Virus record (IMG/VR): IMGVR_UViG_3300025000_000061
Location: 32,001 to 96,000 of that record
Source of the DNA: a virus
Strand: one strand, 5' to 3'
Length of the DNA stretch: 64,000 bases
The stretch's first letter is position 1. Every line of letters starts with the position of its first letter. The translations under genes and the position numbers were made by a program. The notes beneath the pieces were generated by a model, which had not been told where the DNA came from, did no database searches, and worked only from the letters and a program-made list of their open reading frames with translations. Below, in pieces: positions 7,302-61,778 of the stretch.

Positions 7302-7724
7302 TTGAAAATATTACATAATGCTCAGTGTTATAAGCAAGATAGGGAGTTGGATTGGAGAGGGTGGTGTCCGAAGAGGGGTGAGATTTATTTGTGTCAATTG
7401 GGTAATGAAGGTCTTATATATTCAGAGATTAAGGGGTATCGTCCCGTATTGGTTGTGTCAAATAACATAGCAAACAAACATAGTCCAGTAGTTTCTATTA
7501 TACCATTAACTTCTAGTCAAATAAAAAATAATAATATGCCTGTTCATGTTAAAGTAGGAGTAGAAGAAGGGTTACGAACTTCGAGTTTAATTTGTTGTGA
7601 GCAGACTAAAACCGTATCTAAAAATCGTATGTTCATAAATGGTAGTTTAACTAGAATTTGTAAATTGAGTAGTAAATCGATGTGTAAAGTGGACGAGGCA
7701 ATACGAATACAATTTGGATTGTAA
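7302..7724 (+). CDS. mazF: MazF/PemK-family endoribonuclease, no adjacent antitoxin
   Basis: PKRGEIYLCQL...SEIKGYRPVLVVSNNIANKHSPVVSIIPLTS...HV...CEQTKTVSKNR; catalytic Arg and Thr positions retained. Confidence 0.92.
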   Translation: MKILHNAQCYKQDRELDWRGWCPKRGEIYLCQLGNEGLIYSEIKGYRPVLVVSNNIANKHSPVVSIIPLTSSQIKNNNMPVHVKVGVEEGLRTSSLICCEQTKTVSKNRMFINGSLTRICKLSSKSMCKVDEAIRIQFGL

Positions 7725-7873
7725 ATAAATTGGGAATAGATTATAAATATAAATTATAATATATATTATCATATATTATAAAAGGGTGTGATGTCTTTGA
7801 TTGTGTAAAAATAAATTAAAAAGTTATTGTGTTTAAATTGTATCTATTAAAAAATAATATAAAAGGAGGATAT

Positions 7874-9412
7874 ATGTTAGTAAAAAATCAAAAAGTTAAA
7901 ATGAATTGGAGTGGAAGTAATAGAAAACATTATGAATTAAAAGGATATCCTTTTACTAATTATAATGATGAATTTGAAGTTAAAATAGAGGATTTAGCAC
8001 CAAAAAGTCAAAAATATGTTTTGATTAGATGTGATTATTGTGGGATACCTTTTTTGAGAAGGTATGTAAATCATAATACAAGAAAAGAGAAATATGGTAT
8101 AAATGATAAAGATTGTTGTGATGATTGTAGAGCATATAAAAGAGAAGAAACATGTTTAGATAAATATGGTGTTAAAAACGCTGCTCAGACAGAAGAAATA
8201 CAAAATAAAATAAAAAGAACAATTAAAGAAAAATATGGAGTAGAATATATTTCTCAATCAGAAGAAATTAAAAACAAAAAGAAACAAACTTGTTTAGATA
8301 AATATGGAGTAGAATATACCTTACAAGTGCCAGAAATTAGAGAAATAATTACAGAAACTAATATAAATAAATATAGATGTGAAAATCCATTTCAAGCAGA
8401 AGAAATTAAAGAAAAAATAAGACAAGTCAATATGGATAAATATGGAGTTGAATATGCTTCCCAATCTTTAGAAGTGAAAGAAAAAACCAAACAAACTAAT
8501 TTAATAAAATATGGGAAAGAATACTACTTACAAACAGATGAATACAAAGAAAAGATTAAACAAAATAACCTAGACAAATACGGAGTAGAATATTATTCAC
8601 AAACAGAAGAATATAAAAACAAATATAAGCAAACCTGTCAAAATAAATATGGTGTTGATAATGTTTCACAAGTTCCAGAAATTGCAGAAAAAATTTCACA
8701 ATCACGTACAAAAGAATTTAAAGATTTGACAAATATAAAATTTAACCATTTAACAGTAATTTCTTTAGTACCTGATAAAACAAATAAGCACCATGATAGG
8801 TATTGGCTATGCGAATGTGATTGTGAAAATAAAACTAGAAAGGAAATTTCAGAAAATCATTTAGTTAGAGGAAATATTAAAAGTTGTGGGTGTATACGAA
8901 AAGAATCATTAATTGAAAGATGGGAAGGTAAAACAAAAAAGGATATATATCCTTATTACAAAGAAATATATTGTACATATGATAGTATGAGAAAAAGATG
9001 TTATAATGAAAAACATGATAATTATAAAAGATATGGTGGTAGAGGAATAATTATTTGTGATGAATGGTTGAATGATTTTATGAATTTTTATAATTGGGCA
9101 ATAAAAAACGATTATAAAGAAGGATTAACTATTGAAAGAATTGATTATGATGGCAATTATGAACCTGATAACTGTAAATGGGCAACATGGGAAGAACAAA
9201 GTTATAATAAATCAAATACGTTATACATAGAAGTAGACAATGAAATGAAAACAGTTAAACAATGGTCTGATGAAACAGGGATACCTCAACATATAATATA
9301 TCAAAGATATGCCAGATATAAAAGAAAAGATAAAAAAGAATTAGAGTTATTAACTAAAGAAAAATTCTTTAAACCAGTTAGACAACTCAAAAGAAAGGGT
9401 GATGTTGTCTGA
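7874..9412 (+). CDS. Free-standing HNH-type homing endonuclease with 23-aa KYGV repeats
   Basis: ATG 7874 after AGGAGG; about 8 repeats xTCLDKYGVEYxSQ; C-terminal WLCECDC..SCGC..MRKRCYN..YGGRGI..LTIERID..GNYEPDNCKWAT. Confidence 0.8.
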   Translation: MLVKNQKVKMNWSGSNRKHYELKGYPFTNYNDEFEVKIEDLAPKSQKYVLIRCDYCGIPFLRRYVNHNTRKEKYGINDKDCCDDCRAYKREETCLDKYGVKNAAQTEEIQNKIKRTIKEKYGVEYISQSEEIKNKKKQTCLDKYGVEYTLQVPEIREIITETNINKYRCENPFQAEEIKEKIRQVNMDKYGVEYASQSLEVKEKTKQTNLIKYGKEYYLQTDEYKEKIKQNNLDKYGVEYYSQTEEYKNKYKQTCQNKYGVDNVSQVPEIAEKISQSRTKEFKDLTNIKFNHLTVISLVPDKTNKHHDRYWLCECDCENKTRKEISENHLVRGNIKSCGCIRKESLIERWEGKTKKDIYPYYKEIYCTYDSMRKRCYNEKHDNYKRYGGRGIIICDEWLNDFMNFYNWAIKNDYKEGLTIERIDYDGNYEPDNCKWATWEEQSYNKSNTLYIEVDNEMKTVKQWSDETGIPQHIIYQRYARYKRKDKKELELLTKEKFFKPVRQLKRKGDVV

Positions 9413-10008
9413 TTGAATTTATTATAGGAGCAATTTTATATGCAAAATATAAAAAGAAATATAAATTAAAATACATATTTAAATACCCATACATATTTGC
9501 AATAATACCACCTTTATTATGTGCCTTACTATACATATTTATAGAAATATCAGTTTGGAATCAATGGTATTGGTTTTTACCATATCAACATATAATAAAA
9601 ACTACAACTTTGTTAAGTTATATACCTTTACTTTATATATATAATCTTTATGAAAATGATAATCAAAAATACATAAATAATAATATAATGAATGTAGTTA
9701 CTTCACCTATGTTTAAAGCAGGATTCTGCTTATGGTTAGGTTCGACATTAAATAAAATAGTTATAAATGCTAACAATGGTATGCCAGTTTTCCCTAGTAA
9801 TACATACTGGACTGGTTACGCCAAACCAGATTTATTTAATGATGGTATACATATATTAGGTAATGCTTATACAAAATTAATTCCTTTGTCAGACTGGATT
9901 GATATTTTTTACTCGGTGATTTCCCCAGGAGATATTTTAATTCGTATGTATGTTTTTTTAATTATATATTATGCTATAAAATATTCTAATAAATTATTAA
10001 TAAAATAA
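9409..10008 (+). CDS. DUF5317-family membrane protein (true start probably CTG 9409)
   Basis: Frame open from CTG 9409 after GGGTGA SD, giving (M)IEFIIGAILYAK..; NKIVINANNGMPV and TKLIPLSDWI..VISPGDILI motifs. Confidence 0.8.
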   Translation: MIEFIIGAILYAKYKKKYKLKYIFKYPYIFAIIPPLLCALLYIFIEISVWNQWYWFLPYQHIIKTTTLLSYIPLLYIYNLYENDNQKYINNNIMNVVTSPMFKAGFCLWLGSTLNKIVINANNGMPVFPSNTYWTGYAKPDLFNDGIHILGNAYTKLIPLSDWIDIFYSVISPGDILIRMYVFLIIYYAIKYSNKLLIK

Positions 10009-10019
10009 TAAAATAAATG

Positions 10020-10048
10020 TTGACACTTAAACAACTCTATGGTAATAT
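10020..10048 (+). promoter_or_regulatory. Sigma-A promoter for the sensor-like gene and agrD
   Basis: TTGACA-17 bp-TAATAT with extended TG. Confidence 0.75.
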
Positions 10049-10080
10049 ATAAATAGAAAATTACTAAGGGAGTTGGTTAT

Positions 10081-10881
10081 GTGGAACAAAATATTATAAA
10101 TGCGATATTGAATTTTTTCACAATTAGTTTGTTCGAGGAGTTAGGTATAGTTTTACTAATTTTAATATTTTTAAAAAGATTTGATTTACTTGATAAATAT
10201 ATGTGGAGATGGAATATAAAATGGATAATTTTGCCTACAATTTTAACGTCATTCTCCATAAATATATTTATATACATAATACCAAATTTTATATTAAAAT
10301 TTTTTGTTTCTATTATTGTTTTATACTTTTCTATAAATTATATCTTAATTAAAACAGACCCATTAGATGAAAAAATAAAATGGTATAAAATATTAATCAG
10401 TATAATATTAAGCATAGTTATGATAACAAGTGCAGAAATAATATATTTACCAATAATGCTTCAATATGTTAATCAACCAATAGAAATATTGAATAATAAT
10501 ATGTTATTAAAATTTATAGTAAGTTTGCCAGCAAAAACATTTCAAGTGTTATTGATTTATTTCATGTATAAAAAACATAATCAAAGTGAAAAATATGTTT
10601 CTAATATTTTAAAAGATAGAATATTATCTTTAGTTACAATTAGTTTTACTGGTTTAATATTGTTTGCTTTAACATGTATAGTAAAAATTGTAATTAGTTC
10701 AGAAATGATTGGTAAATATTCAATACAAACTCAAATGATGATTAGTGTATTAATAACAATTGTACCAACAATACTAATATTTCTTTATATCATACCAATT
10801 AATTACCTATTATCACGATTATTCAGAATACAACAGAGTTATCAACAAATGTATGATGATGTTGATGATACTGATGTATAG
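10081..10881 (+). CDS. Polytopic membrane protein resembling an AgrC/VirS sensor domain, lacking a kinase domain
   Basis: About 7 hydrophobic helices; directly upstream of agrD; ends in a short acidic tail with no H-box or GHKL domain. Confidence 0.6.
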   Translation: MEQNIINAILNFFTISLFEELGIVLLILIFLKRFDLLDKYMWRWNIKWIILPTILTSFSINIFIYIIPNFILKFFVSIIVLYFSINYILIKTDPLDEKIKWYKILISIILSIVMITSAEIIYLPIMLQYVNQPIEILNNNMLLKFIVSLPAKTFQVLLIYFMYKKHNQSEKYVSNILKDRILSLVTISFTGLILFALTCIVKIVISSEMIGKYSIQTQMMISVLITIVPTILIFLYIIPINYLLSRLFRIQQSYQQMYDDVDDTDV

Positions 10882-10913
10882 ATACAATGAATTGAAAGGA
10901 GGTGAAATTTATT

Positions 10914-11039
10914 ATGAAAAAATATACTCTTTTAGTCGTAGCTGGTTTTATTGCTTTAGTTGCTACTGCACTTACTAATTCCGTAGCATCTTTCATGGGA
11001 TTGAATCAACCTAAGAGTCCTTCTATGTTAGTAAAGTAA
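10914..11039 (+). CDS. agrD: AgrD-like cyclic lactone autoinducer peptide precursor, 41 aa (not in ORF track)
   Basis: Strong SD AAAGGAGGTG; MKKYTLLVVAGFIALVATALTNSVA-SFMGL-NQPKSPSMLVK, i.e. amphipathic leader, 5-residue ring and QPKxP tail; agrB is 1.5 kb away. Confidence 0.88.
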   Translation: MKKYTLLVVAGFIALVATALTNSVASFMGLNQPKSPSMLVK

Positions 11040-11055
11040 TATGACTACATAGAAA

Positions 11056-11093
11056 ATTCTAAAGTAGAGTGTTTACTTCCTCTACTTTAGAAT
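11056..11093 (+). terminator. Hairpin after agrD
   Basis: ATTCTAAAGTAGAG / CTCTACTTTAGAAT perfect 14-bp stem. Confidence 0.7.
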
Positions 11094-11179
11094 AAAAAAA
11101 TAATATAAAAACTATTGTGTTCTATATTAATATATGGTAACATATAGACAAGAATATAATAAATAAGGAGTGGTAAAAA

Positions 11180-12055
11180 ATGATGTTATTTAATAAAAAA
11201 GAAATTCTTAAAAAAGATAATCTTGTGGATGATAAATTTAAAAAAGAGATGGCATTTTTAGTATTTAAAGCAAAAGGTAGACGAAATATTGAACAATTCG
11301 TAAAAGACATGAAAATGTTTGATCCTACACCAATCGTTAATTTAATAAATAAAAATTATAATGAATTACCTGATAGAAAATTATTAAGGAAAATAGCCGA
11401 TAATAGTATGGGAATGGTTAATTTTAGGATATTATATGATCTCTGTGGTTACTCCGAGAGAGATCCTGAAGAAGATCGTAGTTGGATAAAATGGGTTCCA
11501 AGATGGGCAGAAGTTTATATGTGTGATCTAGGCATAGGAGAGGATTGTATTCAAGGAGGGAAAAGAAATGTATTAATAATTCAAAATAATAAAGGCAACC
11601 AACACTCACCGAATGTATCTATATTGCCAATATCCAGTAAATGTAAATTTAACCATATGCATATACTATTAGAAAAAGAATTGGGTTTTGAAAGGGATAG
11701 TTACGCATTGTCAGAAATGCCATTAACTGTAAGTAAGAGGAGGTTCTTTTATAATACAGTACCTTATAAAATTACAACACTTTCAGATTTTAAAATGAAA
11801 GAAATACAGGTATGTCTTGAGAAACAATTTGGATTTTTACCACTTTATTTTGACGTAGAACATGCATTTGAACTAGTCAGACATATAAAAAATCTAGAAC
11901 AAAATATAAAAATCAAAAAATCACATAATTTAGTAGATATTATGGAAGATAAATTAAATGACCTAAAAGAATACTGTTCAAAATACAAAAAGAATTATCA
12001 ACATTACCTACAAGAATACGATAGAATCAATAACTATGGTATTCAAGCAATATAG
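11180..12055 (+). CDS. XRE-like HTH - MazF/PemK fusion with C-terminal extension
   Basis: N-term KAKGRRNIEQF..LPDRKLLRKIAD..LYDLCGY; centre PRWAEVYMCDL..QGGKRNVLIIQNNKGNQHSP..GFERDSYAL. Confidence 0.8.
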   Translation: MMLFNKKEILKKDNLVDDKFKKEMAFLVFKAKGRRNIEQFVKDMKMFDPTPIVNLINKNYNELPDRKLLRKIADNSMGMVNFRILYDLCGYSERDPEEDRSWIKWVPRWAEVYMCDLGIGEDCIQGGKRNVLIIQNNKGNQHSPNVSILPISSKCKFNHMHILLEKELGFERDSYALSEMPLTVSKRRFFYNTVPYKITTLSDFKMKEIQVCLEKQFGFLPLYFDVEHAFELVRHIKNLEQNIKIKKSHNLVDIMEDKLNDLKEYCSKYKKNYQHYLQEYDRINNYGIQAI

Positions 12056-12126
12056 TGTAAATACTATATTTCTTCTATAAAATATTAATAATAAACAAAA
12101 AACAAATAAAAGGAGATGTTCAACAA

Positions 12127-12600
12127 ATGATTAACGAACACAAATTAAAGTATCTATGCAACAAATATGGTATTAATTATCAAGTATTTCATGCAACAGA
12201 TACCATATTAATAGATGCAAAATTAGATATATGGGAGGTGAAATATTATGAAGAAATACAAAAAAAATTAAATTTATTATACAATAAACAAAAAGAAATT
12301 CAATTGCAATTATTATCTCCTGTATTAGATGAACCAATTAAGAAAAAATTATTATATGAATATGAAAAAATAAACAAAAAAATAAAAGAAACAAAACCAT
12401 ATTATTTACTTCATAAAAATAAATCTGATAATAAATTTAGCAATCAGCACACACAAGGATGGAAGAAAAATTTATATCAAGTAATAACTTTTATATTAGC
12501 ACATAAAAGAGTTTTATATGGCATCCAATTAGGAAAGCCATATATACATAAGCACAATATTAAAATAAATAAGAAGGGAAAAGTATGTTTAAATACATAA
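12127..12600 (+). CDS. Hypothetical protein overlapping the agrB start
   Basis: ORF with AAGGAG SD. Confidence 0.7.
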   Translation: MINEHKLKYLCNKYGINYQVFHATDTILIDAKLDIWEVKYYEEIQKKLNLLYNKQKEIQLQLLSPVLDEPIKKKLLYEYEKINKKIKETKPYYLLHKNKSDNKFSNQHTQGWKKNLYQVITFILAHKRVLYGIQLGKPYIHKHNIKINKKGKVCLNT

Positions 12601-13271
12601 GATACCTATTAACATTCCGATATATCAAACTAATATCCTATATATCTGCTAAATATCTTCATAATAAAATACCTGTATTCCCACTAATAGATTCAAAAGT
12701 TTTATTAAAATTTTTACCAAAAAATATGTTAGATTTATTTGAAAATTTACATCAACAATCTAAATTAAAACCATATAAACTTAAATATGTTTATTACTAC
12801 GGTTGTCAAATCATCATAGGAGGCATTAACAAATTCCTACTCTTAATCACACTAGGCATCCTACTCAACATCCTCCCATATCTCATACTAACAACAATAT
12901 CATTCGTATCATTGCGAATTTGGTCTGGAGGGTTACATTTTGACTCTTACTCTAAGTGTGCCTACATTTCACTCTTATCATTTACAATCATGGCACTATT
13001 AGCAAAATACATCTACATATCAACCATACCTACTATATTAATATTCTTAATTGTCTTAATTTTAATTCTATTATATGCACCAGTAGAGCATCCCAACAGA
13101 CCAATAAAAAATAACGAAAAAGTTAAATTTAAATTAATTTCAATTTTCTCATTGTTAATATTACTATTAGTTATTTTATGCGTAAATAATATTATTATCT
13201 GTAATTCTATAGTGTTTGGAGTGCTATTAGCAGGTATAATTATGTTGCCTATTATAAACAAACTGAAATAG
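12585..13271 (+). CDS. agrB: Accessory gene regulator B (AIP-processing membrane peptidase)
   Basis: LRIWSGGLHFDSYSKC (catalytic His/Cys pair) and YAPVEHPNRPI motifs; multiple TM segments. Confidence 0.93.
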   Translation: MFKYIRYLLTFRYIKLISYISAKYLHNKIPVFPLIDSKVLLKFLPKNMLDLFENLHQQSKLKPYKLKYVYYYGCQIIIGGINKFLLLITLGILLNILPYLILTTISFVSLRIWSGGLHFDSYSKCAYISLLSFTIMALLAKYIYISTIPTILIFLIVLILILLYAPVEHPNRPIKNNEKVKFKLISIFSLLILLLVILCVNNIIICNSIVFGVLLAGIIMLPIINKLK

Positions 13272-13382
13272 TTGTTAACGCAAGTATATAAAAAGTCGAA
13301 AAATGTCGCTAGGTAATTGTTGTCTATATGTGAAATTTTATGTAAAATAATATACAATAAAATTATTAACAAAATTCAAAAA

Positions 13383-13435
13383 AAACACTTGTTCTTTTGT
13401 TATCAATGTATTATAATTGGACGAACAGGTGTTCT
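13383..13435 (+). promoter_or_regulatory. SOS-type promoter with two Gram-positive LexA boxes
   Basis: AAAC-ACTT-GTTC (13383-13394) overlaps -35 TTGTTC; 17 bp to TATAAT (13412-13417); CGAAC-AGGT-GTTC (13422-13434) at the predicted +1. Confidence 0.75.
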
Positions 13436-13472
13436 ATAAATAATAACATAATAATATTAGGAGGAGATTGCA

Positions 13473-13703
13473 ACGAATAGTGAAAAAATTTATACAATCA
13501 AAGATGAAAAAGGTAATTTTGTTCATGGTGATGGTATTAGAAAGATCGGCAAAGAATATTATTATTTGCCATATGAAAGTTTAAAAGATGGCTGTATTGT
13601 TTATACTAATAAAATAAGAGTAGAGAAGGCTCTGAATAATCTTGAAATACATAATCGATTAGGTGAGTTAGGACATAAATTTATTATTGAACTTGTCTCT
13701 TAA
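13473..13703 (+). CDS. 76-aa ORF with non-ATG (ACG) start downstream of the SOS promoter
   Basis: AGGAGGAG SD; open frame (M)NSEKIYTIKDEKGNFVHGDG...IIELVS. Confidence 0.55.
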   Translation, partial: TNSEKIYTIKDEKGNFVHGDGIRKIGKEYYYLPYESLKDGCIVYTNKIRVEKALNNLEIHNRLGELGHKFIIELVS

Positions 13704-13732
13704 TAAGATAAAAATAATAACTGACTTTCCTA

Positions 13733-13761
13733 TTGACATAGTATGAAGATACATATATAAT
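13733..13761 (+). promoter_or_regulatory. Consensus sigma-A promoter of the repressor-like operon
   Basis: TTGACA-17 bp-TATAAT. Confidence 0.85.
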
Positions 13762-13809
13762 AAGTATTAATGATTATTATATATAATTTAAAATGAGAGG
13801 TGAAGAATT

Positions 13810-15183
13810 ATGCTTAGTATAAAAAATGCTATGTTAATAGGAGAGTTAAAACCACTAATATTAAAGTATGGCAACAATTCAAAAATCTATAACATTATAC
13901 AAGAGGAATTTATTAAAAAAGGGTTATCTGGTAGCAATGCAAAAAACTTACTAACAGGTAAAATTGCTTTAGAAACATTAGATATTACCAATCAAAAAGA
14001 ATTATTCTTATTATTTTCTTTTACAGATGCTATGAAGAAAGCACTAAGTACATTTGATGAAATGTCCAAGGACACTTTTGGCATGGAAGAGGAATATATT
14101 AAATTAAAATTAGAATATTATTTTACACCCATAGAGATTGAAGAATTTACAGAATTCGTTATAGAGAAAGAAGAAGTAAGAAAATATCCGTATAGATTAA
14201 GAAATATGTTAAAAGTAGGAGAAAATCATTATATAGGGATTATAACTTCTAAAGAATTAGCCGAAATAGATTCTACTAATGATATAGTATATGACTTTGC
14301 AACACAAAGAGATCCTAAAATTGATATATTTGGAATGAGACGTATTAATGTTGACACAAGAAAAATTGATGCAATTGAAAAAAGTTTACTTGCTGGTGAA
14401 TATTTTTCAGATGAAATCAAGTTGAATGTTAAGAATGATGGAGAAGATCATATCGAATTCGATTCAAAGGACGGAATTTATGGTGATCTTATTATTCATT
14501 CAGGAACAATAACTTGTTTTGATGGCTATCACAGAAAAACTGCCAATTCTAAAGCGCAAAATAAAAATAATGAATTGCAATTTAACTGGAAGTTAGGTGT
14601 CACCAATTATCCAGAACCTAAAGCAAGAAAATTTATGACACAGATTAATAAACAAAAACCTATTAAACGTGAATACGTTAAAAATATTGATGAAACAAAA
14701 AATGAAAATACAATTGTCAATAATATTATTAATAATTCTAATTCTGAATTTGCCGATAAAATTAAAGAATCTGATGCAGAATTAAAATTTAGTGGTTTAA
14801 CTAAAAAATCTATATTATCTCTAGCAATAGAAGAACAATATGAAGAATTTTTAAACACTAAAATTTATAATATTGAAATCTCTAATTGGATAGTAGACTT
14901 TACAAATTATTTAATGGGACTATATCCTAATGAATTTTTATTTAATGTAGACAAAACTAAAAAAGTAAGTTATATTAATAATAGAAATATGTTCATAGGT
15001 TATATTGCACTTTCAAGAAAGTTATATAAGCAAGATGATTGGAAGAGTAAGACCGTTAAAATAATGAACAGTATTGATTTTAGCATTGAAAATAGCATAT
15101 GGAAGAATATTCGTATTGATGATAATATTTTAAATAAAACATCAAGAAAAGAATTATATAATCTATTTATAAAGGAGGTGTAA
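13810..15183 (+). CDS. ParB/DndB-like (DGxHR) protein, resembling SPbeta YopQ/SroE
   Basis: TQRDP and FDGYHR motifs; 457 aa; immediately upstream of an integrase-fold gene. Confidence 0.7.
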   Translation: MLSIKNAMLIGELKPLILKYGNNSKIYNIIQEEFIKKGLSGSNAKNLLTGKIALETLDITNQKELFLLFSFTDAMKKALSTFDEMSKDTFGMEEEYIKLKLEYYFTPIEIEEFTEFVIEKEEVRKYPYRLRNMLKVGENHYIGIITSKELAEIDSTNDIVYDFATQRDPKIDIFGMRRINVDTRKIDAIEKSLLAGEYFSDEIKLNVKNDGEDHIEFDSKDGIYGDLIIHSGTITCFDGYHRKTANSKAQNKNNELQFNWKLGVTNYPEPKARKFMTQINKQKPIKREYVKNIDETKNENTIVNNIINNSNSEFADKIKESDAELKFSGLTKKSILSLAIEEQYEEFLNTKIYNIEISNWIVDFTNYLMGLYPNEFLFNVDKTKKVSYINNRNMFIGYIALSRKLYKQDDWKSKTVKIMNSIDFSIENSIWKNIRIDDNILNKTSRKELYNLFIKEV

Positions 15184-15186
15184 ATA

Positions 15187-16251
15187 ATGGTAAAGCATAA
15201 AAATGGTAAGATTAACTTAGCAGAGAGAGTATTTAAACATGATAGAGATGTTAAAGAAGAATTTTTAAAAGATATTAAACCATCAACTGCAAAAACTATA
15301 AGAAGCATACTTTTTAAAGTAGATGATTATGAAGATCGAATCGGTAAAAGTATATATGATTTTACCTTTGAAGAGCGTGATGATTTCTTTATTTCTCAGT
15401 TTTGTAATAAAAGTAAGGGCGTTATTAATACAACAAGATCATATTTAGTAAAGTATATTAACCATTGTATTGATAACAACCTTGTTAGACATATGGAGAA
15501 TAGGTTTGATTTAATTTCTAAAGATGATATTGATAAATATATTAATGATACTGCAATGCAAATGAAATATCTATCTAGAGAAGAAATTAAAGAAGCACAG
15601 GATAAATTAGTTAATAATTGTGATAAGTTAATTTTGCAATTAATACCTTTGTCTGTCAGAGGGCGTACAGAATTGAATAATACTAATGAAGAATTAATTA
15701 ATTTGAGAGTAAAAGATGCTGAAGAATCTTATGAAACAGGTATTTTGCATGTCTGGAATAATGACGGTGATAGAAGACCTGTGAAAATTGATGAAGAAAC
15801 AATAGAATTATTGAAAAAGACAATAAATGATGATAGTTATATTATTAATAACGGAAGCATTTATGATAAAAAAGGGAGAATACTTGGCAGGGGTATCGGA
15901 GAAAAATGTTTTCCTTTAAATGATACTGGTTATGTATTTAGAACTGCTGGTAAGAATAAAAAAGGAAAAGTTAAAACTAATTTTTTTGGTTCTAGGATGA
16001 GAATAATGAAAACCTGGACGATGAATCCATTTATCACCGTAACGAATTTGTATTATTCTGGAATTATCGATTATGCTATGCAATTAAGAAAAGAAAAAGG
16101 TACAGAATTAGATAATCATGATTATATTAAAATAATTGATAAGTTTTCTTATGGTAAACCACAAATACTATCAAACAAAGAATTAGATTGGAGTGTACCA
16201 ATATCAAAAGTAAAATCTATGGTGGAAGATTATATTAATAGAAAATTATAA
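15187..16251 (+). CDS. Tyrosine-recombinase-fold protein with degenerate active site, putative master repressor (YopR/SroF/MrpR-like)
   Basis: SAM-like N-terminus; YLSREEI; VRGR..EELINLRVKD; HxxR box replaced by TNLYYSG. Confidence 0.7.
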   Translation: MVKHKNGKINLAERVFKHDRDVKEEFLKDIKPSTAKTIRSILFKVDDYEDRIGKSIYDFTFEERDDFFISQFCNKSKGVINTTRSYLVKYINHCIDNNLVRHMENRFDLISKDDIDKYINDTAMQMKYLSREEIKEAQDKLVNNCDKLILQLIPLSVRGRTELNNTNEELINLRVKDAEESYETGILHVWNNDGDRRPVKIDEETIELLKKTINDDSYIINNGSIYDKKGRILGRGIGEKCFPLNDTGYVFRTAGKNKKGKVKTNFFGSRMRIMKTWTMNPFITVTNLYYSGIIDYAMQLRKEKGTELDNHDYIKIIDKFSYGKPQILSNKELDWSVPISKVKSMVEDYINRKL

Positions 16252-16263
16252 AGAGGTGATAAA

Positions 16264-17145
16264 ATGGCAAAAGACGTTAATTTATCTGATTACACTGATA
16301 TAGAAGTTTATAATATGCTTAGATTTGGTATTATAGGTAGATTTCCTAATAATTTTTGGGGTGGTTTAGATACCTTTAAAACTGCAAAAGATTTAACCAA
16401 GTATATGTTTGAAAATATTCTCAAATGGGATATAGAAGATATTAAAAATAATACAACAGCAGATATTTTTTATGACTATAGACTTGGTGGTATGCTGAAA
16501 CAATTATTTAATGGTAATGTTTTAGATGCATTATTAAATGCATATCCAGAATTAGAAGAAGAATGGGTAGAATCTAAAAGAAGGACTAAAAACGAAAAAG
16601 AAGAAGATAAAAGAGAAAAAGAAGAAAAAGAAACAAGAGAAAAATATACAGATGAACAATTGATAGAAAATTTACAGCAAAAATTTAAACAATTAAATAG
16701 AAATCCTTATATAAGAGAAATGTCAGATCCAGATGGAAATGTATATTTAACAAGATTTGGTAGTTGGACTAAGGCATTAATTGCAGCAGAATTGCTTGAT
16801 GATATTTGTGCAGATGTAGATGATTCCGAAGAAGCAATTTATGAAGCACAAATTAAGATTAAAGAATTTGCATATCAATTAGGAAGATACCCTACAGAGG
16901 AAGAAGTTAATGATTTATTTTCACAAGGAGAAATAAAAGTTTATTTTAAATCTTTAGTTGGACTTTATAATTATTTAAATGAAGGGTATACAAAAGAAGA
17001 ATTGATAAATATTTTGGTTGATAAAAGAAATAAATTAGATAGAAATCCAATAAACAAAGATATAAAATTCCCAAGACCAATTATTTTTATTGATAAATTT
17101 GAAAGTTGGGAAAATGCTTTAAAAGAAGCGGGATTAGATAAATAA
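16264..17145 (+). CDS. DUF4046-like domain plus homing-endonuclease-associated repeats (putative DNA-binding protein)
   Basis: EVYNML..RFPNNFW..KYMFENILKW; repeats FGSWTKALIAA and FESWENALKEAGL. Confidence 0.65.
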   Translation: MAKDVNLSDYTDIEVYNMLRFGIIGRFPNNFWGGLDTFKTAKDLTKYMFENILKWDIEDIKNNTTADIFYDYRLGGMLKQLFNGNVLDALLNAYPELEEEWVESKRRTKNEKEEDKREKEEKETREKYTDEQLIENLQQKFKQLNRNPYIREMSDPDGNVYLTRFGSWTKALIAAELLDDICADVDDSEEAIYEAQIKIKEFAYQLGRYPTEEEVNDLFSQGEIKVYFKSLVGLYNYLNEGYTKEELINILVDKRNKLDRNPINKDIKFPRPIIFIDKFESWENALKEAGLDK

Positions 17146-20787: not shown

Positions 20788-20910
20788 AGGAAATAAATGC
20801 CCAAAAAATGTGAATTTTAACAATCTATGAAAAATAGACATGCCACAAACCATTGATATTACTGGGTTTGTAAAACTCAATATCATGACAAAATACTCGT
20901 TTTGTGTTAA

Positions 20911-32667: not shown

Positions 32668-32949
32668 TACATATATACTAGATATAGTAAGCATGTAAGA
32701 GATATTCTACTATATCTAGTATTAAAAACAACACAAAATCAGGCTTTTGTCACAATATTTAAGAAAGGGGAGGAATTATCTTGGAAAACAAATATCCACT
32801 TAAAGAATGTTATGAATGTAAATTTAATTATTGTTGGATTGATTATGGTGATTGCAAATTTATTGAAGGTTGAATTTATTGAAGGTTGTATATCAAAATA
32901 TAAATATAGTTTATCAATTTTAGATTAAATTTAATAGGAGGAGAAAATT

Positions 32950-43971: not shown

Positions 43972-45270
43972 ATGAGTTATAATGCATACATAGTTAAAAT
44001 TAAAACTATCAGAAAACATTCAAATGCTGATAGACTTCAAGTTGCAACAGTGTTTGGAAACGATGTTATTGTAGGATTGGATGTTAAAGAAAATGATATG
44101 ATGCTATATTTTCCTACAGATGGTAGACTTAATGTAGAGTATTGTAGAGTAAATAGACTTCTTAGAGAAAAAGATGAGCAAGGTAATAATATTGGTGGTT
44201 ACATGGATGAATCAAAATGTCATGTCACAACAATAAAGTTAAGAAATGAAAGATCGGATGGCCTCTTAATGCCAATAAAAAGTTTAGAGAAATTTACTGA
44301 TATAAATACCTTAAAAGAAGGAGATACTATTTCAACTCTTAATGGGATATTAATATGTGAAAAGTATATTCCAAGAGGTAAGAATAGAAATAAAACAGAA
44401 GTAACGCCTAAAGAAAAGAAAAAGAAGAAAACTGATACAATATCTTACCCATTCTTTGAAGAGCATAGGGATACATCTCAACTAGCATATAATACAGCAC
44501 AATTTAAAGAAGGTGATTTATGTGTGATTAGTTTGAAGCTACATGGAACATCGGGTCGTAGTACATATACTATTAAAGAAAAGAAAAAATTGCTTCCATA
44601 TTGGTTATATAAAACATTGCAAATTGTGAAAATAAAAATACCAAATAAAAAATCATGGGACTATATTTCAGGAACAAGAAGGGTAATACTAAAAAATTAC
44701 GATAATGGATTTTATGGAAATGATAATTTCAGAAAAGAATGGCATGATTTTTTTGTTGATAAATTACATAAAGGCGAAACTGTTTATTATGAAATTGTAG
44801 GATATGTAAATGAAAATACAACTATTATGCCTGAATGTAACAACAAGAAAACTAAAGATAAAGAGTTTATCAAACAATATGGAGAAACTACTAGATTTAC
44901 ATATGGTTGTGAAGTAGGGCAAAATGATATTTATGTATATAGAATGACTAAAACAGATGAAGATGGTAAAGTGGTAGAGTATTCAACAAAATATACTCAA
45001 ATTAGATGTGAACAAATGGGAGTAAAATTTGTACCAGTGTTTGATAAATTTATATTTACTACAGTTGATGATTTAATGGAAAGAGTTAATACATATGTTG
45101 ATGGTGTTGATCCTATTGGTAAAAATCATATTAAAGAAGGTATTGTTGTTAGAATTGATGATCGTGAGAAATTTACTGCATTTAAACACAAAAGTTTTAT
45201 GTTCAAACTTTTAGAGGGCATTATTAAAGCAGACGATATTGTTGATATGGAAGAATTGGAATCTGCATAG
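43972..45270 (+). CDS. ATP-dependent RNA ligase (Rnl2/DRB0094-like) with N-terminal OB fold
   Basis: HSNADRL N-terminus; motif I KLHGTS; YYEIVG; EGIVVR; FKHKS. Confidence 0.85.
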   Translation: MSYNAYIVKIKTIRKHSNADRLQVATVFGNDVIVGLDVKENDMMLYFPTDGRLNVEYCRVNRLLREKDEQGNNIGGYMDESKCHVTTIKLRNERSDGLLMPIKSLEKFTDINTLKEGDTISTLNGILICEKYIPRGKNRNKTEVTPKEKKKKKTDTISYPFFEEHRDTSQLAYNTAQFKEGDLCVISLKLHGTSGRSTYTIKEKKKLLPYWLYKTLQIVKIKIPNKKSWDYISGTRRVILKNYDNGFYGNDNFRKEWHDFFVDKLHKGETVYYEIVGYVNENTTIMPECNNKKTKDKEFIKQYGETTRFTYGCEVGQNDIYVYRMTKTDEDGKVVEYSTKYTQIRCEQMGVKFVPVFDKFIFTTVDDLMERVNTYVDGVDPIGKNHIKEGIVVRIDDREKFTAFKHKSFMFKLLEGIIKADDIVDMEELESA

Positions 45271-45711: not shown

Positions 45712-46644
45712 GTGGAAAAACCAAAACTAATTTGCCTCGTTGGATTACCAGCATCAGGCAAGTCATTTTATGCAAAACAATTAGCAGAACAATATAGTGC
45801 AAAAATATACTCATCAGATCAATTAAGAATAGAAATGTTTAACGATGTTAATGAATGTGATAGAAATGAAGAATTATTTAAGGAATTAAAATTAAGAGTA
45901 AAAAGTAGTTTATCTAAAGGTGAAAATGTTATTTGGGATTCTACTAATATTTCATATAAAAAACGTAAAACAATATTAGAAGAAATGAGAAAATATAATT
46001 GTGATAATATATGTTATTTGATTGCTACTCCATATGAGAAATGTTTAGAACAAAACATACATAGAGAAAGAAAAGTGCCAGAGCATATCATTAGGAAAAT
46101 GTATATGAATATTAATATACCTCAGACATATGAAGGATTTAATGAAATTAATATTATTTATAATACAAATAATATGATGTTTGATGTAAAAGAATTATTA
46201 TATTCATTAGATTTTATAGATCAAGACAATCAATATCACACATTAACAATCGGAAGACATTGTAGAAAATGTGCTGATAACATTAAAAATATGATGTATT
46301 ATAATAAAATAGTTAATGAAAATTGTGAAAATTTATATTTAGCAGGTTTATTACATGATATAGGTAAATGTTTCTGTAAATCATTTAAGAATAGTAAAGG
46401 CGAAATTACTGAAAATGCTACATATTATCAACATCATTTAGTATCTGCTTATGATAGTTTGTTTTATTTAAAAGATTTAGGTGTGAGTAAAGATGATATA
46501 TTAGAAATTACTAATTTAATTCAATGGCATATGAGATTATTTAATGAAACTGAAAAATCTAAAAAGAAATTTATTAGTATGACTAGTCAAGGATTTTATA
46601 ATGATCTATTGTTATTGCACAAGGCCGATATTAATGCAAAATAA
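45712..46644 (+). CDS. Polynucleotide kinase (AAA_33) fused to an HD phosphohydrolase
   Basis: GLPASGKS P-loop, SSD..R, DSTN; H..HDIGK..H..WHM..AD. Confidence 0.85.
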   Translation: MEKPKLICLVGLPASGKSFYAKQLAEQYSAKIYSSDQLRIEMFNDVNECDRNEELFKELKLRVKSSLSKGENVIWDSTNISYKKRKTILEEMRKYNCDNICYLIATPYEKCLEQNIHRERKVPEHIIRKMYMNINIPQTYEGFNEINIIYNTNNMMFDVKELLYSLDFIDQDNQYHTLTIGRHCRKCADNIKNMMYYNKIVNENCENLYLAGLLHDIGKCFCKSFKNSKGEITENATYYQHHLVSAYDSLFYLKDLGVSKDDILEITNLIQWHMRLFNETEKSKKKFISMTSQGFYNDLLLLHKADINAK

Positions 46645-56093: not shown

Positions 56094-56389
56094 TTTAAAA
56101 TATGTTAAATTTGGTTTATCACGTTTTTTATCGATCAAATATTCAATTTAACTCACTTATACTTCCATTTGCTATGTAGTATAAATGTCATAATAAAATA
56201 ACGGTTTTGTCACAATATAGGTAAAATTACGCAATATCGTAATGTATCTGATTTTACCCATAATAATGTCAGCAAACCCTTATAATACAAGGGTTAGAGA
56301 GCATTTTTATACTTAAAATAAAAGTATAAAATAAATATTGTGACAAAAGAAAGATTTTGTTCAAACTTTAAAGGAAAAAGGAGGAAATT

Positions 56390-58772: not shown

Positions 58773-60101
58773 TTGCAAGAAATATTAAGTATTGTTAATC
58801 AATTAGCAAGTACATCTAGTCGTTTAGAAAAAGAATCTATTTTAAAGAGAAATCAAGATAATCAATTATTCAAAGACATTCTTACATTCGTTTATAATAC
58901 TTTAGAAGTAAAAACAGGTATTAAACGTAAAAAACTTGAGAAGAAAGTAAAATCTAAACCAACAGTAACTATGAATAATTTTTATGATTTAAGAGATTAT
59001 TTATCTAATCATAATACTGGTTCAGATGAAATAATTGCAAATATTCAACAATTTTTATCTCAGCAAGAAGATAATATAAAAGAATTATATATTCAAATTA
59101 TTCTTCAAGACCTACGTTGTGGTTTAAAAGAAAAAACTATTAATAGTGCCTTTGGATATGAATTTATTTATATCCATAAATTAGAGAAAGGAGAAGTAGC
59201 AGAAGAAAAACATCTTAAATGGCTTAAAAGTAAAGAATTTGGTATATATAGAAAGTTAGATGGGTATAGAAGTGAAATTGAAGTAGGTAATAATAAGGTT
59301 AAGATAATGTCCTCTGGTGGTGAAATATATAAAGAATTAGTCGATATTGAAAAAGTATTATCTGAAACTGATTTACCACATGGAGTATTTGTTTGCGAAT
59401 TATTAGCAGTAGATGATAATAATACAATGTCTAGAATAGAAAGATTTAATAAAACTGGTTCTATTTTAAGAAAAGATGGAGAAAAGCATGGAATAGAAGT
59501 TAATATATTTAATTTTATTCCTGATGACGGATTTTATAAAGGTTATCATCCTATGACTTGTAGAGATAGAAAGAATCTAGCAAAAAAATTGATTGATAAG
59601 ATTAATTCTCCTTTGATTAAAAATATTGATCCTTTCTATATTGGAAAAGATATTGCTCAAATTGATTATTGGTTTGAAAAAATGATGGATCAAGATGATG
59701 AGGGAATTATGGTTTTGCCTTTAGATGCAAAATATTATGGTAAAAAATCATATCAACAAATGTTAAAGGTTAAGACAGAAAAAGAAGCTGATGTGGTTAT
59801 AGTTGGTTTTGAAAAAGGTGAAAAAGGTAAGGAATTTGAAAATACTTTAGGTAAAATAATTGTAGATTATAAAGGTAAACCAGCAAAAGTAATGTGTGGT
59901 TATAAAGTAAAATATAATCCAGATAAATATGATAATAGGATGGTTAGAGATTATATTTGGAATCATCAAGATGAATTGATGGGTAAAATTGTTAAGGTAA
60001 GATATACAGATGAAAATGTTAATGAAAAAGGTGAATTGGATTTAAGATTATGTAGATTGATTGAGTATAGAGATGATAAGAGTGAACCGAGTTATAATTA
60101 A
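58773..60101 (+). CDS. lig: ATP-dependent DNA ligase
   Basis: Motif I KLDGYR; CEL; EGIMV; LKVK; C-terminal OB fold ..YRDDK. Confidence 0.9.
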   Translation: MQEILSIVNQLASTSSRLEKESILKRNQDNQLFKDILTFVYNTLEVKTGIKRKKLEKKVKSKPTVTMNNFYDLRDYLSNHNTGSDEIIANIQQFLSQQEDNIKELYIQIILQDLRCGLKEKTINSAFGYEFIYIHKLEKGEVAEEKHLKWLKSKEFGIYRKLDGYRSEIEVGNNKVKIMSSGGEIYKELVDIEKVLSETDLPHGVFVCELLAVDDNNTMSRIERFNKTGSILRKDGEKHGIEVNIFNFIPDDGFYKGYHPMTCRDRKNLAKKLIDKINSPLIKNIDPFYIGKDIAQIDYWFEKMMDQDDEGIMVLPLDAKYYGKKSYQQMLKVKTEKEADVVIVGFEKGEKGKEFENTLGKIIVDYKGKPAKVMCGYKVKYNPDKYDNRMVRDYIWNHQDELMGKIVKVRYTDENVNEKGELDLRLCRLIEYRDDKSEPSYN

Positions 60102-60563: not shown

Positions 60564-61778
60564 ATGCAAAATCCATTATATTTAGTTAAAGTAGAACCAG
60601 GAGAAAATAATAATAAATATTACCAAATGCTGGATAACGGCGATGGAAATTTTATTTGTAAATATGGTAGAATTGGCAATTCAGGTTATCAGACAAAAAC
60701 TTATCCTATATCTAAATGGGAATCTCAATATAAAAGTAAGATAAAAAAGGGTTATATAGACCAGTCAAGATTAGTTGCGGAAACTATTGTTACTCAAAAT
60801 AAGAAAAAAGAATACCTTGATATTGACAATCCATCTATAGCACAAATTGTAACAAGATTACAATCTATGGCACGACAAGCAATTAAGGATAATTATACTA
60901 TTAATTCTCAGAATGTTACGCAGGTTATGATCAACGAAGCACAGTTAATTTTAAATAATCTAATTGATGCAGATGATATTGAATTATTTAATAAAATACT
61001 AGTTGATTTATTTAAAACTATCCCTAGAAAAATGGGTAAAGTTAAAGATTATTTAGCAAAAAGTGATAAAGATTTTAGTGAGATTATTCAAAGAGAACAA
61101 GATTTACTTGATGTAATGAAAGGTCAAGTTGTTCAACAATCTATAGTTAAAGATGAAAATAATGAAGATGATACATATGAAATGCCAAATCAAACAATAT
61201 TAGAAGTATTAGGATTACAATTTGAAGAAATTACTCAAGATGAAAAAGAATTAATTAAGAAAAATCTTGGTGGTATTAGTGATAAATTTTATCAAGCATG
61301 GAGAGTTATTAATATTAAGACACAAAAGAAATTTAATGAGTTTATACAGAATAATAATATAAAAGAAAATAAATTATTATGGCATGGATCAAGAAACGAG
61401 AATTGGTGGAGTATTATTAATTCAGGATTAGTTTTAAGACCATCTGCTGTAATCACAGGCAAGATGTTTGGATATGGTATTTATTTTGCACCTAAAGCAA
61501 GAAAGTCATTTGGTTACACTTCTTATCATGGTTCATATTGGGCAGGAGGAAATTCTAATTCTGCATTTATGAGTTTATATGATGTAGCATATGGCAAACC
61601 TTACGATGTACATTCTTTTGATAGTCAATATCATAATTTTAACTATGAGTTATTACAAAAGTATTGTAAAGATGCTAATTGTCTACATGCTCATGCTGGA
61701 AGTATGCTTAGGAATGATGAGATTATAGTTTATAAAGAAGAACAAACTACTATTAAGTATTTAGTTGAATTGAGGTAA
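60564..61778 (+). CDS. WGR-domain poly(ADP-ribose) polymerase-like protein
   Basis: NNNKYYQM..KYGRIG..KIKKGY (WGR-like); LWHGS; GKMFGYGIYFA..KS.GY; NDEIIVY (H-Y-E triad). Confidence 0.88.
   Translation: MQNPLYLVKVEPGENNNKYYQMLDNGDGNFICKYGRIGNSGYQTKTYPISKWESQYKSKIKKGYIDQSRLVAETIVTQNKKKEYLDIDNPSIAQIVTRLQSMARQAIKDNYTINSQNVTQVMINEAQLILNNLIDADDIELFNKILVDLFKTIPRKMGKVKDYLAKSDKDFSEIIQREQDLLDVMKGQVVQQSIVKDENNEDDTYEMPNQTILEVLGLQFEEITQDEKELIKKNLGGISDKFYQAWRVINIKTQKKFNEFIQNNNIKENKLLWHGSRNENWWSIINSGLVLRPSAVITGKMFGYGIYFAPKARKSFGYTSYHGSYWAGGNSNSAFMSLYDVAYGKPYDVHSFDSQYHNFNYELLQKYCKDANCLHAHAGSMLRNDEIIVYKEEQTTIKYLVELR

Follow-up and report, generated by a model that had tools for sequence, protein, structure and literature searches.

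The 64,000-nucleotide stretch of DNA analysed here (the window) comprises bases 32001-96000 of a 151.8-kb viral record (IMG/VR IMGVR_UViG_3300025000_000061), which is estimated to be 82% complete. Between positions 7302 and 16251 it carries genes for an Agr-type cyclic peptide, interleaved with genes for MazF ribonucleases and followed by homologues of SroE/YopQ and SroF/YopR of phage SPbeta. Sequence comparison makes this peptide cassette a strong candidate for a phage communication system of a second kind, next to arbitrium. The region as a whole is best explained as controlling the choice between lysis and lysogeny in a large temperate phage of Clostridium. Among the peptide systems encoded by phages, arbitrium is to our knowledge the sole one with a demonstrated influence on lysis and lysogeny; it is known only from phages of the Bacillus group and combines a linear peptide with a cytoplasmic RRNPP receptor. 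If our assumptions are true, then communication among phages arose on more than one occasion, using different chemistries.

Linkage of the peptide cassette to the repressor genes

Relatives' loci (numbered with the prefix L below) were fetched via AgrB, the seven-transmembrane (7-TM) protein of the cassette, DUF5317 and YopQ, and analysed by tblastn and jackhmmer. The block of cassette and repressor genes was recovered from no fewer than 17 separate loci of phages or prophages, with protein identities of 25-90%. In every agr-bearing relative whose contig reaches far enough, DUF5317, the 7-TM gene, agrD, a long MazF gene and agrB adjoin yopQ-yopR, as a first-pass annotation of the window had anticipated when it tied the agr genes to sroEF. 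The order DUF5317, 7-TM, agrD, long MazF is invariant among the loci, and agrD always directly follows the 7-TM gene. The position of agrB is more flexible: it stands either after the long MazF gene, with or without a small open reading frame (ORF) between them, or upstream of DUF5317 (L013, L030, L039), and it is never lost. Wherever agr is present, the long MazF, a fusion with an XRE-family helix-turn-helix (HTH) domain, is present too, and the agr-less loci all lack it. For the window itself, the previously read gene order from mazF to an integrase-fold protein was recovered on the + strand with every gene in its place, and the boundaries of DUF5317 and agrD were mended. Judged from the recurrence of the block in at least 17 loci, its order is far from chance. 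The peptide-making cassette, the SOS-connected switch of SPbeta type and the evolutionary coupling between them are all well supported.

The genes of the block differ in how closely they evolve together. Over 66 locus pairs, the identities of YopQ and YopR co-vary strongly (Spearman r 0.92). Cassette genes co-vary among themselves and with the long MazF at mostly 0.4-0.7 (DUF5317-AgrD 0.23), and their co-variation with yopQ/R is weak (0.17-0.53).

Such linkage might be no more than a relic of history. In this reading, an agr operon acquired a single time beside the repressor genes would hitch-hike with them and play no role in the phage life cycle. Three agr-less relatives are in line with this idea. 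Two of them, L033 and L034, consist of a short MazF, a small ORF, yopQ and yopR and thus keep a working-looking core; the third, L032, has a short MazF and retains only DUF5317 of the cassette, suggesting that the cassette can be lost. In agr-less relatives, the short MazF immediately precedes the small ORF and yopQ. On the other hand, the reading frames of the cassette are intact, catalytic residues are invariant, and a hairpin and promoters are conserved. Moreover, the gene order has been kept across repeatedly recombined loci that diverged to 25-40% identity. We regard a purely historical linkage as very unlikely.

Homologues of the repressor pair and a probable SOS input

The yopQ homologue (13810..15183, +) encodes a ParB-like protein of DndB/DGQHR type with 457 amino acids (phrog_5732, 2e-59). 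By tblastn it is related to yopQ of SPbeta (1e-13) and to its phi3T homologue (1e-20). Residues D238, G239, H241 and R242 of the DGxHR motif are invariant across YopQ homologues, SPbeta YopQ included, and PF14072 was found on orthologues. After a gap of 4 bp there follows the yopR homologue (15187..16251, +), which encodes an integrase-fold protein of the SroF/MrpR master-repressor type with 354 amino acids. It matches PF22822 (MrpR_N_CB) at 5.9e-14, with 52.9 bits versus a cut-off of 27, and SPbeta yopR by tblastn at 1e-9 over 86% of the query; its orthologues additionally bear PF22823 (MrpR_C_cat). The identification of the genes at 13810 and 15187 as YopQ and YopR homologues, suggested by the first-pass annotation, is thus substantiated. 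The role of master repressor without recombinase activity is established for SPbeta YopR only (bioRxiv 10.1101/2022.10.21.513154).

Two promoters precede the pair. The proximal one (13733..13761, +) is a sigma-A promoter of yopQ-yopR, TTGACA-17-TATAAT, which agrees with the consensus in 12 of 12 positions. It is the sole 12/12 site between 6.8 and 18.2 kb and is invariant in L003 and L010. The distal one (13389..13435, +) is of SOS type and consists of a -35 box TTGTTC, a 17-nt spacer, a -10 box TATAAT and a LexA (Cheo) box, CGAACAGGTGTTCT. The core of this box, at 13423-13434, is an exact GAAC-N4-GTTC, and no second one occurs anywhere in the 64 kb of the window. In 9 further loci, the sole exact LexA box of the whole locus lies at the same position, and 5 others have a box with one mismatch there. 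Two loci show a different arrangement, with the sole exact LexA box just downstream of yopR (L013:11905, L041:9843), as for sar/yopT in SPbeta.

The SOS-type promoter is followed by a small conserved ORF with the motif VIKDxxGNFV (13461..13703, +), recognised from its frame and orthologues. It spans about 70-105 codons across loci and occurs in the agr-less L032-L034 too. In the window and in L003 (L003:10954-11214), ACG stands at the expected start, so that the true start is either non-canonical or further downstream; in L010 (L010:3852-4082) the start is ATG. SroF of phi3T and SPbeta is inactivated by Sar/YopT, a small antirepressor under the control of LexA (bioRxiv 10.1101/2025.11.27.690993). 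Homology of the small ORF to YopT/Sar was rejected since hhalign shows no similarity to YopT. We propose it as a candidate SOS-controlled switch factor, for which a Sar-like role is suggested by analogy only.

Palindromes of the form TGACAAAA-N6-TTTTGTCA occur between genes at window positions 20886-20907, 32731-32752, 56191-56212, 56341-56362 and others. With up to 3 mismatches there are 6 matches versus 2.1 expected, and the control region at 7-18 kb is free of them. The YopR-type repressor could use these palindromes as operators, in the manner of the repeated sites of SPbeta, or they could serve as recombination sites. Directly after yopR, at 16264-17145, lies a gene for a DUF4046 protein with homing-endonuclease-associated repeats (PF18780), which is kept there in many relatives.

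The predicted peptide and its maturation

The agrD gene (10914..11039, +) encodes 41 amino acids; ATG at 10914, with the ribosome-binding site AAAGGAGGTG, is its most likely start. In the product we predict a Ser-closed ring of five residues, S-F-M-G-L, followed by the recognition tail NQPKSPSMLVK. All 17 AgrDs from 17 loci have Ser exactly five residues before a tail of the form (N/H/S/Y)(Q/E)(P/S)xxP, in agreement with the lactone-type peptide proposed by the first-pass annotation. The other four ring positions vary, which results in at least 14 different rings in the 17 loci (SFMGL, SFMGF, SFMWL, SFLSF, SAWTF, SAAWL, SYWWL, SWVGF, SWLML, SWLGA, SMFFS, SAFLW and others). Nine AgrD peptides were compared with protein families, and the AgrD family TIGR04223 alone was matched by all of them. 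At 14.6 bits, the peptide of the window is under the cut-off of 19; L006 reaches 21.2, L013 31.1 and L011 32.9, and chromosomal AgrDs score 52-55.

The presumed maturation enzyme is the AgrB peptidase/cyclase (12585..13271, +; PF04647, 7.4e-37), with 126.9 bits versus a cut-off of 23 (127.9 bits in the genome search). Residues R111, G115, G116, H118 and C125 are invariant in 17 orthologues, and H118/C125 form the catalytic dyad. The catalytic pair of S. aureus AgrB, H77/C84, has the same spacing of seven residues. As to its origin, the phage AgrB has similar BLAST scores versus AgrBs of the four-gene-operon type described below and versus the AgrC-linked type.

A perfect hairpin of 13-14 bp (11057..11092, +; fold z-score -5.4) begins 18 nt past the agrD stop and is followed by an A-run. 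Hairpins of 11-18 bp and of locus-specific sequence follow agrD in 17 of 17 loci (z -2.2 to -6.5 in relatives). A classical intrinsic terminator is not supported because an A-run instead of a U-run stands behind the hairpin. The element is rather a candidate 3'-end or stability element, or an atypical terminator.

From its genes, the peptide system looks functional, and the cassette should yield a phage-specific, Ser-closed (lactone) cyclic peptide of five residues, SFMGL in the window. Hosts of related prophages would make peptides of another chemistry. Prophage-bearing genomes have their own operons with Cys-type AgrDs, for example SSACIWGH/YQPEEP, which are predicted to give thiolactones of the autoinducing peptide (AIP) type, in contrast to the Ser type of the phages. 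Two Clostridiaceae genomes with the prophage block (L054, L055) contain their own four-gene operon of DUF5317, a membrane protein of 149-161 amino acids, AgrB and AgrD. Separate agrB genes adjoining AgrC-type kinases were seen in hosts as well (L056, L058, L059).

Two membrane proteins with relatives in clostridial agr operons

Two further genes of the cassette encode membrane proteins, and both have relatives in chromosomal agr loci of clostridia. The DUF5317 protein (9409..10008, +; PF17248, 1.1e-13) has 199 amino acids and starts with CTG/ATT, in overlap with the stop codon of the preceding HNH endonuclease gene; at 9400-9412, the latter ends with GTC TGA. The L003 orthologue spans 9409-9999 at 69% identity in tblastn. 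An ORF of 132 codons from 9610 was discarded as an artefact of the start-codon rule, by which standard ORF callers shorten DUF5317. The HNH insertion seems to have replaced the TTG start of DUF5317 that is found in L003. The phage protein is 37-42% identical to chromosomal DUF5317 proteins beside agrBD and, by this comparison, corresponds by homology to the gene that opens the four-gene agr operon of clostridial chromosomes.

The 7-TM gene (10081..10881, +), behind a predicted sigma-A-like promoter which also precedes agrD (10020..10048, +; TTGACA-17-TAATAT with an upstream TG, 10/12 in a consensus scan), encodes a polytopic membrane protein of 266 amino acids without a kinase. The AlphaFold2 model (pLDDT 76) has about seven helices, and its long C-terminal helix ends in an acidic tail. 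No Pfam, NCBIfam or PDB profile matched the protein. Fold searches (Foldseek versus PDB, ESM Atlas by shape, VIA) returned background only, the best Z being 7.9 over partial helices. A profile search of 1.84 billion representatives gave 181 relatives, all of 250-325 amino acids except shorter fragments, and no kinase fusion was present among these 181 listed representatives.

An AgrC-like label, attached to the protein by the first-pass annotation, had to be withdrawn. There is no PF14501 in the 152-kb record and no kinase in the family, and hhalign of the 7-TM profile versus AgrC sensors, AgrB and DUF5317 gave a probability of at most 1.6%; N-termini from Clostridium AgrC genes adjoining agrB served as the AgrC controls. 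The AgrC-like reading is retained solely as a functional possibility. As we read the model, the 7-TM, N-out/C-in layout would be common to the protein and the AgrC sensor.

The hhalign comparison points instead to the second gene of the clostridial operon. A 7-TM profile of 129 sequences matched the CPE1562-type family with a probability of 93.2% (E 2.9e-7, 136 columns); smaller profiles of 14 and 2 sequences gave only 10%. Proteins of CPE1562 type are membrane proteins of 149-166 amino acids encoded between DUF5317 and agrB-agrD in chromosomal loci, and the region homologous to them comprises residues 10-164 of the 7-TM protein. Compared with the chromosomal protein, the phage type has some 100 additional residues, with two more helices, an inserted, highly conserved cytoplasmic loop and the conserved tail QxSYQxMxDD. 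The cytoplasmic loop carries the motif KRFDLLDxYxW, in which R33, D35 and D38 are conserved. In distant bacterial members of the family (L011, L012), an AgrD-like ORF comes directly after the 7-TM gene. A second 7-TM paralogue lies between the cassette and yopQ in three loci (L030:8466-9311, L031:8287-9171, L039:6446-7285), in which no second agrD was detected.

Taken together, the homologies of DUF5317 and of the 7-TM protein show the phage cassette to be a rearranged copy of the kinase-less operon that also contains a MazF fusion. Toxins and sporulation are under agr control in several clostridial species, and the cassette provides an approach to DUF5317 and the CPE1562-type gene, the two members of the clostridial agr operon that lack an explanation. 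A kinase-less four-gene operon of the type CPE1563-CPE1562-agrB-agrD is described from C. perfringens (PMC2706048). We infer that CPE1563 and CPE1562 belong to the DUF5317 and CPE1562-type families from the identical operon layouts in L024, L026, L054 and L055. As far as known, the clostridial kinase-less operon is biosynthetic.

MazF genes

The long MazF gene (11180..12055, +; PF02452, 1.4e-14) encodes a fusion of 291 amino acids. According to the AlphaFold2 model and VIA, residues 13-96 adopt the HTH fold of the XRE family (Z 8-9 overall; 8-8.9 to XRE regulators, C.AhdI, SinR and ImmR). Residues 105-221 correspond to a MazF of EndoA type (PDB matches to S. aureus and B. subtilis MazF at 1e-27 to 3e-29, VIA Z 9-10), in which the catalytic R129 is invariant and P150-x-(S/T) is conserved. 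Residues 226-284 form three helices. A putative promoter of its own, read from the sequence, lies at 11115..11143 (+) and consists of a -35 box TTGTGT, 17 nt and an extended -10 box TGgTAACAT; relatives share this layout, with a TTGaca-like box and then TGgTAAnAT.

No MazE-like antitoxin was recognised as a neighbour of the fusion. Its XRE domain or its C-terminal helices could neutralise MazF in cis. Between the fusion and agrB, and overlapping the agrB start, lies the small basic orf157 (12127..12600, +; homologues of 96-161 amino acids). It is present in L003-L010, L013 and L046 and absent from L016, L029-L031, L038, L039 and L047. Since only around half of the loci possess it, the cassette does not depend on it, and a role as obligatory antitoxin of the fusion was rejected on the ground that seven agr-bearing loci lack it. 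The short MazF/PemK ribonuclease gene at the other end of the region (mazF1, 7302..7724, +; PF02452, 2.8e-24; phrog_1936) is accessory, since relatives exist with and without it.

In phi3T, arbitrium acts by modulating the host MazF, whose activity favours lysogeny (PMC10769878). This makes a phage-borne MazF at the equivalent position noteworthy.

Receptors and possible roles

Because its linkage to the repressor genes is invariant, we suggest a role of the cassette in the choice between lysis and lysogeny. In our model, the cassette would make a phage-specific Ser-lactone peptide. Once secreted, the peptide would report phage density and bias the establishment of lysogeny and/or prophage induction, as an analogue of arbitrium. 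SOS would be the second input to the switch, through the LexA-boxed small gene, and the XRE::MazF fusion would be the most likely effector in the cytoplasm. That the cyclic peptide is a phage density signal acting on the lysis-lysogeny switch is a proposal we make tentatively, as something a little short of an even chance.

The model depends on where the peptide is sensed. Neither a kinase nor LytTR turned up in the 152-kb record. Searches with the sequence of SPbeta AimR gave no match there and, by jackhmmer, none in the 10 kb around the module in the relatives; they used no AimR profile, AimRs being very divergent, and the record is 82% complete. Among eight larger ORFs of the window (310-442 amino acids) scanned versus Pfam, no AimR was recognised either. 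The comparison on whether the cassette excludes aimRP is confounded by host genus. Two candidates for sensing are at hand, the phage 7-TM protein with its cytoplasmic loop and C-terminal tail, or a host kinase of AgrC/VirS type.

Several points weigh against the density-signal model. Firstly, the cassette equals a chromosomal operon that encodes no receptor, and the conservative reading is peptide production only. Secondly, a receptor or an AimR could lie in the missing part of the incomplete record. Thirdly, morons (genes expressed in lysogens) often adjoin repressor genes, and adjacency is no proof of wiring. Finally, between-gene differences in divergence are modest over all pairs (30-41%), and the co-variation of 7-TM and AgrD described below suffers from the confounding effects of linkage and phylogeny; a 7-TM protein that processes or exports the peptide would show it just as well.

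If a host kinase is the target, the cassette might serve lysogenic conversion. An AIP-like peptide would then activate or block host receptors of AgrC/VirS type and alter sporulation, toxin or biofilm programmes; adjacency to the repressor would reflect transcription in lysogens, and the MazFs would be a separate toxin or defence function. The nature of the cassette, a biosynthetic clostridial agr operon lacking a receptor, fits this view, as do the agr operons and the AgrC-type kinases beside AgrB in prophage hosts. Phage agr genes of unknown role have precedents, such as those of phiCDHM1 (PMC3901668; review PMC11945551). The repeated 28-bp palindromes, being absent from the 7-18 kb region, would also fit lysogenic expression, provided that they are repressor operators. 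It is less easy to reconcile with such host manipulation that the peptides are hypervariable between close phages, with which a host receptor is not co-inherited. The long XRE::MazF is, furthermore, strictly tied to the cassette, and the cassette stays directly before the switch genes through many rearrangements. We consider host manipulation a possible role, clearly below an even chance.

In a bolder version of the density-signal model, the phage would be self-contained. Its 7-TM protein would sense the extracellular peptide and signal through its conserved loop and acidic tail to XRE::MazF, which would set the balance of SroE and SroF, the output proceeding via the RNase and/or the DNA-binding activity of the fusion. 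This would be a pherotype system. For the density-signal model in general speaks the pattern of divergence, which resembles the pherotype segment of staphylococcal agr. The lowest mean identities over the locus pairs are those of AgrB (30%) and the 7-TM protein (32%), with 37-41% for the other genes. Between the window and L003, the 7-TM protein (39%) and AgrD (38%) are much less conserved than flanking DUF5317 (69%), MazF (56%), YopQ (81%) and YopR (75%). Identity of the 7-TM protein also climbs with the count of shared ring residues, from 30 through 34 and 45 to 62%. We rate the self-contained version as unlikely in this full form. If true, communication between phages would have evolved a second time, independently of arbitrium, in a system that senses outside the cell, has an RNase output and is free of a two-component or RRNPP receptor.

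The same variability might be the mark of an exclusion or competition module. In that case, an antimicrobial or interfering peptide would act on non-lysogens or rival pherotypes, the 7-TM protein would be its exporter or immunity factor, and the MazFs would be abortive-infection toxins. The peptide and the polytopic membrane protein, both of them variable, always come as a close pair, in bacteria too (L011, L012), and the second 7-TM paralogue without a second peptide gene in L030, L031 and L039 agrees with a function in immunity or export. All recognisable homology is, on the contrary, to agr signalling peptides and their maturation genes, and we know of no five-residue ring of AIP type that acts as a bacteriocin. 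Although MazF is a known phage-defence toxin (PMC10769878), we find an exclusion module very unlikely.

Relation to known systems

The closest functional parallel of the region is the arbitrium/sroA-F region of SPbeta and phi3T. In both cases a peptide module stands directly upstream of SroE/YopQ and SroF/YopR on the same strand, so the arbitrium-equivalent position assigned by the first-pass annotation is retained. SOS input, established there and predicted here, runs via a LexA box and a small gene, and a MazF RNase has a part in the decision pathway, host-encoded in phi3T and by our proposal phage-encoded here. The signals are of different types. The arbitrium peptide is linear, secreted by Sec and re-imported by Opp, whereas an AgrB-cyclised Ser peptide with two membrane partners is predicted here and no AimR/RRNPP receptor was found. 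Homologues of sroA-D are absent, the hosts are Clostridium, and the SOS gene lies upstream of sroE instead of downstream of sroF and is unrelated to YopT/Sar. Outside the repressor pair, the phage has no close kinship with SPbeta, and its DNA polymerase III alpha has at best 30-34% identity to any deposited phage protein. Hence, the attribute "SPbeta-like" fits the repressor module and the genome style and not the whole genome, and of the SPbeta-like locus claimed earlier it is the repressor pair that stands. As a whole, the earlier interpretation is partly supported.

With the clostridial four-gene operon the cassette shares DUF5317, a CPE1562-type protein, AgrB, AgrD with a QPxxP tail, and a locus devoid of kinase and regulator. 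It differs in that agrD follows the membrane protein and agrB is elsewhere, not in the order DUF5317, membrane protein, agrB, agrD. The phage ring is closed by Ser instead of Cys, XRE::MazF is inserted, and the genes are phage-borne and placed beside a repressor module.

The agrBDCA system of S. aureus has in common with the cassette a His/Cys peptidase-cyclase AgrB, an AgrD with a five-residue ring and conserved C-terminal tail, and a hypervariable segment of pherotype kind. The phage possesses two extra membrane proteins and no AgrC kinase, AgrA or output of RNAIII type. Lactone rings closed by Ser are known from AIPs of the S. intermedius group. C. difficile phage phiCDHM1 (PMC3901668) likewise bears agrB and agrD without agrA; unlike the present phage it has an AgrC kinase homologue, and no link to a switch of SroE/F type is reported for it. 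In the literature searched, we found no description of a kinase-less DUF5317/CPE1562-type/XRE::MazF cassette fixed before SroE/SroF homologues.

Phage, hosts and accessory genes

The window has a G+C content of about 24%, and its + strand holds nearly all genes. Megablast of the region versus 50,697 deposited phages gave no match and no close DNA relative, and tblastn with AgrB and the 7-TM protein found nothing in the same genomes, which leaves metagenomes and metagenome-assembled genomes as the only known sources of close relatives. The 7-TM protein was present in 3 of 391 sampled Clostridiaceae genomes, each copy being inside the same block of cassette and repressor genes. As these prophages are related to the phage of the window, its hosts are Clostridium-type bacteria. 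The existence of prophages with the block in sequenced Clostridiaceae genomes, such as those of loci L046 and L047, also makes the hypothesis directly testable.

The HNH gene between mazF1 and DUF5317 (7829..9412, +; DUF7487, 3.6e-43; phrog_374, 3e-67) encodes a homing endonuclease and is a mobile insertion outside the conserved core, absent in L006, L013 and L016. Elsewhere in the window, accessory genes at 60564-61778, 43972-45270, 45712-46644 and 58773-60101 encode a protein with WGR and PARP catalytic domains, an RNA-ligase-like protein, a fusion of an AAA_33 kinase with an HD phosphohydrolase, and an ATP-dependent DNA ligase. Together they suggest a set for RNA/DNA repair or anti-defence.

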